A stretch of DNA of 60,683 nucleotides from Deltaproteobacteria bacterium (GCA_020850995.1 JADZDP010000155.1:1-60683); one strand, 5' to 3'; positions 25,541-30,701 are shown, counted from the stretch's first letter. The notes: generated by a model from the sequence alone, not told the origin. Made by a program: numbers and translations.

Positions 25541-26263
25541 TTACTCGCCCTCGCCCTCGCCCTCGCCCTCGGCCGGGCAGACCCCGCCGCTCGGACAGGG
25601 CGCAGCGTCGTCGGCGTCAATGCCGCACGAGGTCACGCCCACGGTACACGGCGCTCCCGGTGCATGAAGGCAGCCGGCGTCGACGACGCAGGCGGCGCCG
25701 AACAGCGCGCAGTCGATGGAGTAGGGCTGGCCGTCGGTGACCAAGGGGCCCACAGCGCCCACGCAGCGCTCGATCGCGACGGTGCCGTCGCAGGTGCCGA
25801 CGTCGGCGCGCGCGCAGGTGCCCACGTCGGCGTGGCAGCGGGCCACGCCGTCGGCCTCCATCACGCAGGCCGCGTCGGTGCCGGCGCAGAAGCCGAGGAA
25901 GAGATCGCCGACCTCGTCGAGCACGCAGGCCTCCCCGGCGGGCAGCACGCAGTCGACGCCGTAGCTCGGGATGGCCGTCTGGCAGGTGGCGACGCCGGCG
26001 GGGTAGGGCGGGGCATCGCAGCTATAGGAGAACACCGTCTCGTTGCCGGCGGCGTCGACGTCGCAATAAAGGACCACGTTGTCTTGGCAGCGGCCGTCGA
26101 TGCCGAGGTCGCCGCAGGGACCCTCGCCCTCGCCCTCGCCCTCGCCCTCGCCCTCACCTTCGCCCTCACCCTCTCCTTCACCCTCACCCTCGCAGGCGGA
26201 GGTCGCCGGCAGTAGCGGCAGGCACAGGAGCAGCAGCAAGGATGCGCGCGCGAGATCGCTCAT
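25541..26263 (-). CDS. Cys-rich secreted lipoprotein with N-terminal (EG)12 and C-terminal (EG)4 tracts
   Basis: Signal peptide plus lipobox (LLPATSAC), then EGEGEG..., then a ~170-aa domain with ~20 Cys. Ends in AEGEGEGEGE. Confidence 0.6.
   Translation of the reverse strand: MSDLARASLLLLLCLPLLPATSACEGEGEGEGEGEGEGEGEGEGEGEGPCGDLGIDGRCQDNVVLYCDVDAAGNETVFSYSCDAPPYPAGVATCQTAIPSYGVDCVLPAGEACVLDEVGDLFLGFCAGTDAACVMEADGVARCHADVGTCARADVGTCDGTVAIERCVGAVGPLVTDGQPYSIDCALFGAACVVDAGCLHAPGAPCTVGVTSCGIDADDAAPCPSGGVCPAEGEGEGEGE
26120..26191. repeat. tandem hexanucleotide repeat (GCCCTC/GAGGGC)x12 encoding (Glu-Gly)12
   Basis: 12 near-perfect 6-bp units in frame in the 25541..26263 gene, with a few CCTTCA/CCCTCA variants. 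Confidence 0.8.
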
Positions 26264-26273
26264 GCGCAGAAGT

Positions 26274-27113
26274 CTACGAGCTTACGCCCGACTCCGCCGT
26301 CAGGCGTTTGAGCACCCCGTGCAGGAGCTGCAGCTGGCGCACGTGGTTGGCGAGCGCGAGCTCGTTGCCGGCGAAGGGCTCGAGGTACTGCAGGGCTTGC
26401 TCGAGCCCCCACAGCATGGGCGCGATGGCCGCCACCAGCGCGGCCAGGTTCGGCGCCAGGCTGTTGCGCGGCCCGGCCCGCGACAGCTCGTCGCGCAGGC
26501 GCGCAACCTCAGCCTGCAGCTCCCCGAGCCGTCCGAGCTCGCTGTGCTTCTGTCGTTCCGCCTCGAGCTCGGTCAACAGGCGCCCGGTGGTGATCTGCGC
26601 GCTCTGCAGCTCCTCGGTCAGGCGGGCGACCTCGGGGGCATGGTTGGCGGCGGCGCGGGCGCGCGCGAGCTCCTCCGTGAGCTGCAGGTTGCGGGCCTCG
26701 GCTTCGGCGGCCAGGTTTGCGCGCGCCGCAACTCGCTGCAGCTCCTCGCGCAGGCGAACGACCTCGTTCTCGAGGGGCACCTGGTTGGCGCGCGCGTCGG
26801 TGCGCGCGCCCTGCAGCTCGCTCTGCAACACGATGAGCTGTGCCTCGGTCTGCTGCAGGCGCGCCTCGGCCTCCTGCGCGCGCCGCTCGCCCTCGGCCCG
26901 CCGGTGCTCCTGCTCCGACAGGCGCTGCTCGAGGGTCTCCTTGGCTCGCGTGAGCTTCTCGACGGCGCCGGCGATCTCGTTGTCCGAGTGCTTGGGTGGC
27001 AGCGCCATGAACTGCGCGTTGCACGTCGGGCAGCGCAGCTCCGCGCCGCCGGCCGGGACGGCCTCGTCGCGGACGCGATACTTCGACGCACAGCCCGGGC
27101 AGGTGACGATCAT
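26274..27113 (-). CDS. MJ0042-type zinc-ribbon protein with long coiled coil
   Basis: MIVTCPGCASKYRVRDEAV...LRCPTCNAQF gives the CPxC...CPxC zinc ribbon. ~200 aa of heptad-rich E/R/A/L coiled coil follows. Confidence 0.65.
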   Translation of the reverse strand: MIVTCPGCASKYRVRDEAVPAGGAELRCPTCNAQFMALPPKHSDNEIAGAVEKLTRAKETLEQRLSEQEHRRAEGERRAQEAEARLQQTEAQLIVLQSELQGARTDARANQVPLENEVVRLREELQRVAARANLAAEAEARNLQLTEELARARAAANHAPEVARLTEELQSAQITTGRLLTELEAERQKHSELGRLGELQAEVARLRDELSRAGPRNSLAPNLAALVAAIAPMLWGLEQALQYLEPFAGNELALANHVRQLQLLHGVLKRLTAESGVSS

Positions 27114-29280: not shown

Positions 29281-29354
29281 GCCGCGGAGTCTATCGGCTC
29301 CGCGGCTCCGATCGAACCCCTGAGTTCACGTGAGCTCAGGGGATAAACGAGGGA

Positions 29355-30701
29355 TCAAAGGCAATCGACGGCGGGACTGAATTGCGCGCTCGGCGCCACC
29401 GCGCACAGCGGCGCGTCGATGCCGATGCGGCCCACGCCGCCCCCGCCGCCTCCGGCGCCATCACCGTCGCCCTCCGCGCTGCCCGCCGACAGCAGCGGAC
29501 CCGCCCCGTCGGCGCCAGCGCCCGGCCCGCCGCTGGAACCGCCGCTGCCCGCGAGGCCGCCAGGTGCACGCTCGGCCGGAGTGCGCGGACCGTCCTGGCC
29601 CGCGGAGCCGGCCGCAGCGGTGGACCCACCGGCGCCACCGCCGCCCTGCGCGCTCACGGTGCCGCCGTTGAGCTGGATGTACCCGGCTTGCAGATACACG
29701 TCGCCGCCGCTGCCGCCGCCGGAGCCACCGCGATCGCCCGTGGGCGACGCGCCACCACCGCCGCCGTTGGCCGAGATGCTGCCCCCGAGCGCGAGCCGGC
29801 CCGCCACCGAGAGCTGGAGCGCGCCGCCCGCGCCGCCGGGTGCGGCGGCGAACGACGACGGCGAGCCCCCGCCGCAGCCGCCGACCAGCGCGTCGTGGGG
29901 CGTGCCGACGGTGACGACGTTGGCGTTGCCGCCATTGTCGTTGCTCTCGTCGCCACCGTCGCCGCCCATGCTGCCGTGGCTGCCCCCGCCGCCGCCCGCC
30001 TCGGGCGCGCCGCCGTCGCCGCCGGCGCAGGAGCGACTCGAGGACCCCGCGCTCGTGCCGCGCGCGTCGACGCTCAGGGCGCCGTTGATGTCGGCGTTGC
30101 CATAGACAGCGAGCACCACCTCGTGGTTGCCCACGAAGCGCAGGTCGGCGCCCGAGGTGACCGTGAGCGAGCGCATGGTCAGGATCAGCGCCGTTCCGTC
30201 GACGTGCGCCGCCACCGCTTGACCGCACAGGTCGAGGGTGGCACCGGCGGCGCTGGTGTCGACGTCGTCGACACAAGTGAGCGCCACGTCGGTGTAGTAT
30301 GCGTGTGACGCGTCGTCGCTGAGGCCGGGCGCGGGGGCTTCGGCGTAGCCGTGCGCCAGGCTCTCGAGGTCGCGGTAGCAGAGCGGCGGGCCACCAGGGC
30401 ACACCAGCGTCCCGCCCTCGCCTTCACCTTCACCCTCGCCTTCACCTTCGCCTTCGCCCTCGCCTTCGCCTTCGCCTTCACCTTCGCCCTCGCCCTCACC
30501 CTCGCCTTCGCCTTCACCTTCGCCCTCACCTTCACCTTCGCCCTCACCTTCACCAGCGATCACGCTGCACGCTGCTGCGCGGCACACTTGTCCTCCGGGG
30601 CAGTCGGTGTCGCGTTCACAGGGGAGCGCGGCGCCCAGAAGGTGGCAGGCGCTGAGGGCCAGCAGCAACGCGAGCGGCCACGAGAGGAGCGCGAGCTTCA
30701 C
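29355..30701 (-). CDS. lipoprotein with ~23 x (Glu-Gly) tract and Gly-rich beta-helix-like C-terminal region
   Basis: Signal peptide plus lipobox (LALSAC) and a Cys knot. EG tract of ~47 residues. G/S/A-rich region with repeated GGxGG motifs. Confidence 0.65.
   Translation of the reverse strand: MKLALLSWPLALLLALSACHLLGAALPCERDTDCPGGQVCRAAACSVIAGEGEGEGEGEGEGEGEGEGEGEGEGEGEGEGEGEGEGEGEGEGEGEGGTLVCPGGPPLCYRDLESLAHGYAEAPAPGLSDDASHAYYTDVALTCVDDVDTSAAGATLDLCGQAVAAHVDGTALILTMRSLTVTSGADLRFVGNHEVVLAVYGNADINGALSVDARGTSAGSSSRSCAGGDGGAPEAGGGGGSHGSMGGDGGDESNDNGGNANVVTVGTPHDALVGGCGGGSPSSFAAAPGGAGGALQLSVAGRLALGGSISANGGGGGASPTGDRGGSGGGSGGDVYLQAGYIQLNGGTVSAQGGGGAGGSTAAAGSAGQDGPRTPAERAPGGLAGSGGSSGGPGAGADGAGPLLSAGSAEGDGDGAGGGGGGVGRIGIDAPLCAVAPSAQFSPAVDCL
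30414..30554. repeat. tandem hexanucleotide repeat (~23 units, GCCYTC/GAGGGC family) encoding (Glu-Gly)n
   Basis: 141 bp of in-frame 6-bp units with CCTTCG/CCTTCA/CCCTCG variants. Confidence 0.8.

Follow-up and report, generated by a model that had tools for sequence, protein, structure and literature searches.

Four consecutive minus-strand genes in a 60,683-nucleotide stretch of DNA from a Deltaproteobacteria bacterium (GCA_020850995.1, JADZDP010000155.1:1-60683; hereafter the window, meaning the whole stretch analysed) encode, in 5' to 3' order, a predicted lipoprotein (LP1), a transmembrane Hanks-type Ser/Thr protein kinase (STPK), a cytoplasmic zinc-ribbon coiled-coil protein (ZnR-CC) and a second predicted lipoprotein (LP4). 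Both lipoproteins carry long tracts of alternating Glu and Gly (EG), and a first-pass annotation had treated the cluster at 25541-30701 as a system of four co-functioning genes. I find no support for such a system beyond very close relatives of this organism. The locus is probably a mosaic, in which lipoproteins with clade-typical EG tethers have recently been added to an older kinase/ZnR-CC pair, rather than a dedicated four-gene system. The apparent new system would then dissolve into a conserved kinase/adaptor pair of an ordinary kind, flanked by two envelope proteins specific to the lineage.

In this explanation the older, conserved part would be a signalling pair, a single-pass Hanks-type kinase and the cytoplasmic ZnR-CC, set in a backbone that runs GDH, DapF, a 247-amino-acid lipoprotein, kinase, ZnR-CC and a convergent che operon. 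In the sub-lineage of the window, two fast-evolving envelope lipoproteins would have joined this pair, one on each side. Their (EG)n tracts would be intrinsically disordered, strongly acidic tethers that hold a folded domain off the membrane (46 residues would have a contour length of ~16 nm, 24 residues one of ~8 nm). In these two proteins the anchor would be a lipidated Cys at the N-terminus, and in some homologues a MYXO-CTERM tag at the C-terminus. Each tether may present its cargo at the cell surface or within the periplasm: in LP1 an adhesin-like β-helix domain, in LP4 a domain of some ten disulfides. Tethers of this type would be typical of the clade and used by lipoproteins that are otherwise unrelated.

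Conservation of the locus in related Myxococcota

The four open reading frames (ORFs) lie on the minus strand where the first-pass annotation had put them, and the gaps between them, given there as 10-75 bp, are 74, 55 and 10 bp. Related loci were collected with the kinase in a one-genome-per-species scan (80 Myxococcota loci), to which a metagenome scan and protein look-ups added others, and their arrangements were established by tblastn and ORF reading. The kinase gene is directly followed by that of ZnR-CC in L002, L069, L006, L084 and L092. Of these loci, L092 (ZnR-CC 57% identical) looks like the plain backbone: GDH, DapF and the 247-amino-acid lipoprotein lead into the kinase and ZnR-CC, which converge on CheX, CheA, CheY, CheW, MCP, AIRS and PD40, and no EG genes are present. 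The core of L069 and L006 is arranged as in L092.

LP4 follows ZnR-CC in the window, L002 and L084 alone, and is absent from L069, L006 and L092 despite their kept backbone. In L002, LP4 carries both EG tracts, LP1 is absent and DctP abuts the kinase; L084 reads from the end of the kinase gene through ZnR-CC into an LP4 with 9 + 9 EG repeats. LP1 occupies its position in the window and in L001 alone, where it follows DctQP, carries (EG)27 and precedes the kinase, and is absent from L002 and L092. In L091 other genes intervene between the kinase and ZnR-CC, and more distant ZnR-CC homologues (37-43% identity) adjoin ArgG and a cation-efflux gene, with neither kinase nor che genes beside them. 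From this pattern, the only stable adjacency is that of kinase to ZnR-CC, itself inside a generally syntenic block, and the lipoproteins look like recent arrivals, each limited to one sub-lineage. Thus, the co-conservation envisaged for the four genes holds for kinase and ZnR-CC, extends to LP4 in two relatives and to LP1 in one, and fails for both lipoproteins elsewhere, each being absent from relatives with the backbone.

Orthologues of the L092 backbone genes are found in the window at 38329-41163 (247-amino-acid lipoprotein, DapF and GDH) and 18151-25529, which leaves ~9 kb between the 247-amino-acid lipoprotein gene and the kinase and places LP4 between ZnR-CC and CheX. Compared with L092, the window thus has an apparent insertion of ~9 kb at 30870-39084 containing the TRAP transporter genes DctPQM, LP1 and three ORFs without any Pfam match (34535-36226, 36598-37413 and 37802-38308).

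Directly 5' of the kinase in the backbone arrangement is a conserved predicted lipoprotein of ~250-300 amino acids with an LAGC or LGC lipobox (window 38317-39084, minus strand; L069 9077-9982; L092 4790-5533; L006 33-707), for which no Pfam or NCBIfam family was found. As a conserved partner of the kinase in the periplasm, it is a better candidate than LP1 or LP4.

The kinase and ZnR-CC

The kinase (27169-29280, minus strand, 703 amino acids) matches Pkinase PF00069 over residues 9-269 at 125 bits (cut-off 31.7) and carries the catalytic motifs VCIK37, HRD143, VTDFG and MAPE189 of a Hanks-type enzyme. In its catalytic loop, HRDVSPHN, Ser replaces the Lys of most kinases. A hydrophobic, Arg-flanked stretch at residues 536-555 (LAVAALLVAGVGAIALALVL; 27616-27675, minus strand) is the sole predicted transmembrane helix and would place the kinase domain in the cytoplasm and the remaining ~145 residues, a Pro/Ala-rich linker and a small β-sandwich, in the periplasm. 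The first-pass annotation called this a PEGA-domain kinase. The kinase part of that assignment stands, whereas the C-terminal domain of the window protein has no PEGA match in Pfam even at E<=10 and is PEGA-like through its orthologues: the corresponding C-terminus in L006 matches PF08308 PEGA at 30.6 bits (gathering score 20.8), and a hidden Markov model (HMM) of four orthologous C-termini matches that of the window at 24 bits. This divergent, PEGA-like and presumably extracytoplasmic domain corresponds to 27172-27372 (minus strand). Kinase orthologues in L001, L002, L069, L006, L092 and L091 are 50-87% identical over the best aligned segment.

ZnR-CC (26274-27113, minus strand, 279 amino acids) belongs to a family of 63 full-length homologues at 33-100% identity. 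Its N-terminal ribbon (27003-27113, minus strand; CxxC-x19-CxxC with Cys5, Cys8, Cys28 and Cys31) matches PF13717 at 50.2 bits (cut-off 30.3) and TIGR02098 at 39.3 bits (cut-off 20.9), in agreement with its earlier description as an MJ0042-type zinc ribbon. Two parts are maintained across the family, the ribbon and a C-terminal region (residues 226-275, LVAAIAPMLWGLEQ...LKRL; 26289-26438, minus strand) that is 49-81% identical in L002, L069, L006 and L083-L089 and has no Pfam match, while the coiled coil between them diverges.

The best solved relative of the ribbon is 2nb9_A (E 1.3e-4), which I take to be ZitP of Caulobacter and which its depositors named 'Uncharacterized protein'; the ribbon of GltJ/AgmX (7zok) is matched weakly (E 0.56). 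The Cys positions reported for the GltJ ribbon are those found in ZnR-CC, and such ribbons have protein partners: that of GltJ binds MglB and an internal linker, and ZitP binds PopZ (PMC11135422). Given this similarity and the published data on GltJ and ZitP, the ZitP/GltJ-type ribbon of ZnR-CC would be a protein-protein interaction module, followed by a long coiled coil and the conserved C-terminal region. ZnR-CC is without a signal peptide, and I infer that it is a cytoplasmic adaptor and a possible partner or substrate of the kinase, which may phosphorylate it.

The EG lipoproteins

LP1 (29355-30701, minus strand, 448 amino acids) begins with a predicted signal peptide (30645-30701, minus strand) ending ...LLLALSAC, in which the lipobox L-S-A-C (Cys19) matches the canonical pattern [LVI][ASTVI][GAS]C. 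A Cys mini-module follows at residues 28-45 (CERDTDCPGGQVCRAAAC; C-x5-C-x5-C-x4-C; 30567-30620, minus strand); at 16.1 bits (E 0.009) against a cut-off of 25 bits, it has a sub-threshold resemblance to TIGR04201 Myxo_Cys_RPT. This module also stands before the EG tracts of proteins in L001, L004, L007 and L069. Next come the (EG)23 tract (30414-30554, minus strand) and a C-terminal Gly-rich domain (29358-30410, minus strand) that is confidently modelled as a right-handed β-helix. The nearest known structures are β-helical adhesin and secretion domains, namely HMW1 (2odl), EtpA (8cpk), HxuA (4i84) and FHA (1rwr), although LP1 does not itself belong among the two-partner-secretion (TPS) domain adhesins. 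An extracytoplasmic location of LP1 is suggested by this adhesin-like fold. The L001 orthologue is 75-78% identical, and a search for the family returned 294 matches, those with names being from Myxococcota/Deltaproteobacteria. EG is found in 2 of the 120 family members examined, and in the three homologue contexts inspected there was no consistent kinase neighbour. LP1 belongs to a large family, so far without annotation, of putative surface proteins of Myxococcota with a Gly-rich β-helix.

LP4 (25541-26263, minus strand, 240 amino acids) has a less regular N-terminus, ...LPATSAC (Cys24), which presumably agrees with the looser PROSITE pattern PS51257; Thr at -3 is non-canonical, so cleavage by signal peptidase I (SPase I) after TSA is an alternative. 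Both LP1 and LP4 would, from their sequence patterns, be lipoproteins processed by SPase II. In LP4 the (EG)12 tract (26120-26191, minus strand) immediately follows Cys24 and the Cys-rich domain comes after it (25571-26119, minus strand); the EG tracts had been placed behind a Cys-rich module in both lipoproteins, which is correct for LP1 and not for LP4. LP4 ends in a second tract, (EG)4E (25544-25570, minus strand), encoded by a perfect (GAGGGC)4 with 100% matches in Tandem Repeats Finder (TRF). Otherwise the earlier reading of the two proteins was accurate: the (EG)23 and (EG)12 tracts are confirmed by TRF and direct reading, one protein ends in EG and the other in a Gly-rich β-helix. Orthologues of LP4 with both tracts, in L002 and L084, are ~70% identical.

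The Cys-rich region of LP4 is an undescribed family, modelled as a disulfide-rich all-β domain. A word-indexed search with it found only the domain itself, and 72 remote homologues emerged by full HMMER search, sharing 19-20 conserved cysteines that would make about ten disulfides. The domain belongs to no Pfam or NCBIfam family and matches no solved structure. It is nonetheless confidently modelled, with 20 cysteines in LP4, and is probably extracytoplasmic. EG stretches occur in 10 of the 72 homologues, nine of which have a lipobox. In one homologue, P0188, EG lies on both sides of the domain and the C-terminal stretch runs into a MYXO-CTERM-like tag (18.7 bits, below the cut-off of 20); the tail of another, P0216, matches MYXO-CTERM TIGR03901 at 22.4 bits (same cut-off). 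LP4 itself has no such tag and ends ...CPAEGEGEGEGE, which offers neither a hydrophobic helix nor an Arg tail. The 19 conserved Cys and the tail of P0216 argue for an extracytoplasmic location of the LP4 domain, and the tags of its relatives place the domain family at the cell surface.

A Pfam match named 'TrAA12-like' on both lipoproteins was rejected, as the matches sit on the EG tracts, fall below the cut-off and are presumably low-complexity artefacts. Look-ups by exact sequence returned no record for LP1, LP4 or ZnR-CC.

Distribution and codon usage of the EG tracts

A six-frame scan for at least four EG repeats was made over 1.35 Mb (the 80 Myxococcota loci and the window). Such tracts are present in five of the eight loci of the clade and in none of the 72 other Myxococcota loci (p=2e-6), the positive loci (L001, L002, L004, L007 and L069) being among those with the kinase closest to that of the window. 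Within the window they are confined to the LP1 and LP4 genes. Tracts this long cannot have arisen by chance. The EG proteins of L004 and L007 are unrelated to LP1 and LP4 and distant from the kinase, and they consist of a signal peptide/lipobox, a short Cys module, an EG tract and a globular domain that differs between them. The occurrence of EG tracts in these loci and across the 72-member Cys-rich family marks the tract as a clade-wide type of linker and not as a signature of the cluster: it follows lineage and anchor-to-domain position, not a specific domain or gene cluster. About four independent EG genes lie in ~190 kb of the clade outside orthologous positions, roughly one per ~50 kb.

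In every EG protein examined the tract separates the globular domain from the anchor. The earlier suggestion that the tracts are polyanionic, flexible spacers on the envelope was reasonable and gains strength from the present data. EG-less homologues of the LP4 domain have an N-, S- or D/G-rich low-complexity linker in the same position, and these substitutes, together with the kinase linker of L091, support a role as tethers. That linker (6095-6220), which bridges membrane helix and PEGA-like domain in the periplasm, consists of (EA)21 and then Glu-Thr repeats. The L091 protein has no Pfam match in the precomputed table, and its first ~310 residues are 63% identical to the kinase-domain region of the window. 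Repeats of (DT)6-10 or (PE)6 also occur in ORFs near kinase genes in L053 (8173-8208), L062 (8172-8225), L067 (16028-16087) and L089 (7016-7051). Acidic dipeptide repeats other than EG, (EA)21 and (DT)n among them, are found in extracytoplasmic linkers elsewhere in Myxococcota, and linkers of this kind may be a wider habit of the phylum, with a composition specific to each lineage.

Tract length varies between orthologues: LP1 has 23 repeats and its L001 orthologue 27, the N-terminal tract of LP4 has 12 (11 in L002, 9 in L084) and its C-terminal tract 4.5 (11 in L002, 9 in L084). The orthologous tracts differ by many synonymous changes as well, with zero amino-acid interruptions, and tracts are retained in homologues that share only 35-44% identity with LP4 in the Cys-rich domain. 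As DNA, the long tracts are 81-85% repetitive while perfect as protein. In LP1, TRF gives a period of 6, 23.2 copies and 81% matches, and a higher-order period of 18 bp reaches 87%, so that amplification of a unit also had a share in forming the tract.

The window has ~70% G+C, and its genes have a strong bias at third codon positions (GC3). Against this bias the rare codons GAA, GGT and GGA are several-fold enriched in 30414-30554 and 26120-26191 of the window and in L069 8754-8936 and L002 13709-13774; the LP4 tail contrasts with these tracts in being a perfect GAGGGC repeat. GAA makes up 15 of the 23 Glu codons in the LP1 tract (65%) compared with 7% in 24 window genes (p=1e-12), and GGT 42% compared with a background of 10%. 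In the L069 tract GAA reaches 47% and GGA 32% (compared with 5%), and in the C-terminal tract of L002 GAA reaches 64% and GGT 55%. From this enrichment of rare synonymous codons the repeat appears to be maintained at the level of the protein. Judged by sequence, the pattern fits selection on the amino-acid repeat combined with avoidance of a perfect DNA repeat.

Weighing the alternatives

The four genes share a strand with gaps of 74, 55 and 10 bp, L002 and L084 have LP4 immediately behind ZnR-CC, and L001 has LP1 immediately ahead of the kinase. All of this would suit one envelope-sensing system, with the EG lipoproteins serving the PEGA-like domain as ligands or co-sensors and with signalling from the kinase to ZnR-CC and perhaps onward to the che proteins. 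The extracytoplasmic domain of the kinase could indeed meet a periplasmic partner. I nevertheless consider such a system improbable, as L092, L069 and L006 keep the kinase, ZnR-CC and che genes without LP4, L002 and L092 do so without LP1, genes of both lipoprotein families are found elsewhere with no linkage to a kinase, EG lipoproteins lie far from the kinase in L004 and L007, and a stable pair of hairpins stands between LP1 and the kinase. Nor is the proximity of LP1 and LP4 telling: with EG genes as frequent as they are in this clade, close pairs are expected somewhere by chance, and since the region was picked for its EG genes, finding two together is unremarkable. Another reading, likewise unlikely, is that (EG)n is a selected, clade-specific 'display code' placed on many unrelated lipoproteins and MYXO-CTERM proteins. 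The polyanionic tethers would then possibly serve surface sorting or cation binding, their DNA would be synonymously scrambled for repeat stability, and the cargo of LP4 would be a disulfide-rich fold without a solved relative.

Two further explanations concern the tract itself. It might mainly be a signal for sorting or export to the outer membrane or surface, like the acidic lipoprotein signal of Bacteroidota. In LP4 and several homologues the acidic tract does begin at, or a few residues after, the lipobox Cys, and where the lipobox is missing, family members rely on a MYXO-CTERM surface anchor. I think this quite improbable, given that LP1-type tracts lie at least 30 residues from the Cys, behind the Cys mini-module, that EG tracts also occur at C-termini and beside MYXO-CTERM tags, that they far exceed the length of a short sorting motif, and that the known signal operates in another phylum, where the machinery differs. 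Lol sorting in E. coli reportedly requires disordered linkers (bioRxiv 10.1101/2021.01.05.425367), and this point would favour a sorting role. It is very unlikely that the tracts are neutral, in-frame GAGGGC hexamer microsatellites of a 70% G+C genome, functionless and tolerated in linkers. Repeat number does vary among orthologues (23/27; 12/11/9; 4.5/11/9), the LP4 tail is a perfect DNA repeat and the 18-bp period suggests slippage amplification. Neutral drift would hardly, however, leave the DNA 81-85% repetitive and the protein perfect, with rare synonymous codons ~nine-fold enriched, zero amino-acid interruptions in 23-30 repeats (window, L001 and L069) and the same tract position in homologues as distant as those with a Cys-rich domain 35-44% identical.

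A mosaic of an older pair and later lipoproteins remains the explanation I favour, with several points against it. In each of the three genomes of its sub-lineage, LP4 directly follows ZnR-CC at a distance of 10-25 bp, so some functional tie to the pair is possible. An EG-tract β-helix protein, a paralogue, is encoded less than 1 kb from the kinase locus of L069 on the opposite strand. The rare codons may stem in part from an amplified 18-bp unit that happened to hold them. Finally, the census of the clade covers loci chosen by kinase similarity (~200 kb). The β-helix gene of L069 was considered as a conserved LP1-kinase linkage and rejected, as it is not among the closest relatives of LP1 in the window and lies on the other strand.

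Gene neighbourhood and transcription

Convergent with the cluster is a che-type operon (20736-25538, plus strand), whose products by Pfam are an MCP with HAMP, CheW, CheY, CheA and a weak CheX/CheC-like protein, and which is syntenic in L002, L069, L006 and L092. It is a member of the conserved backbone, outside the four-gene cluster. A functional coupling of kinase and ZnR-CC to the che genes was considered and set aside: the adjacency is tail-to-tail within a ~15-kb block that is syntenic throughout and therefore has little specific weight. The stop codons of the CheX-like gene (plus strand) and LP4 (minus strand) are separated by 2 bp at 25538-25541 (4 bp in L002), which leaves terminators no room, and the two transcripts probably overlap. 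On the other side, the TRAP transporter genes DctPQM are divergent from LP1. A second Ser/Thr kinase of 858 amino acids, in which a TPR region precedes the kinase domain, is encoded ~9 kb from the cluster (15298-17874, plus strand) and illustrates the kinase density of this genome.

The shared strand and short gaps are compatible with co-transcription of the four genes. The 74-bp spacer between LP1 and the kinase (29281-29354, minus strand) holds two GC-rich hairpins, with an RNA fold of -41.1 kcal/mol (z -4.2 relative to shuffles). The second hairpin overlaps the stretch just 5' of the GTG start of the kinase and is conserved in part in L001, whose longer gap of ~210 bp shares with the window only the ~45 bp adjoining the kinase start. 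A scan for sigma-70 consensus promoters and terminators returned 0 and 1 sites, not above shuffles, which says nothing either way.

Comparison with known systems

A literature search for bacterial EG repeats returned no description of bacterial EG-repeat tethers; the sole natural Glu-Gly region it returned was that of vertebrate RPGR-ORF15, a eukaryotic cytoplasmic substrate of TTLL5 glutamylation with no evolutionary or mechanistic link to the tracts described here. In Bacteroidota, a short acidic stretch directly after the lipobox Cys is reportedly an export signal linked to surface exposure. LP4, with its acidic C-EGEG... right after the Cys, resembles this signal by motif description; unlike the short motif of that other phylum, LP1-type tracts sit well away from the Cys. 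The MYXO-CTERM/myxosortase proteins (TIGR03901) share their tag with the LP4-domain homologue P0216 and, below the cut-off, with P0188, whereas LP4 has an EG tail at its C-terminus and would be anchored, if at all, by its N-terminal lipobox. ZnR-CC shares with ZitP and GltJ the N-terminal CxxC-x19-CxxC ribbon (Cys 5, 8, 28 and 31) and differs from them in what follows, a coiled coil and a family-specific C-terminal region, with no GYF domain and no membrane span.

None of the EG tethers, the LP4 domain or the LP1 family overturns current understanding. The closest known concept is that of the disordered N-terminal linkers of Gram-negative lipoproteins such as RcsF, NlpD and Pal, an established and functional feature for which, according to El Rayes et al., length and disorder matter and the exact sequence does not (bioRxiv 10.1101/2021.01.05.425367). 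In both cases a disordered segment would separate a lipidated Cys from a folded domain. The EG linkers differ in that they are strictly alternating, acidic and 12-30 dipeptide units long, follow a Cys mini-module in some proteins and occur at C-termini as well. If a strict Glu-Gly repeat does indeed tether many envelope proteins to the membrane in one uncultured clade of myxobacteria, it would offer a clean natural case in which to ask why disordered lipoprotein linkers exist and which composition they need.

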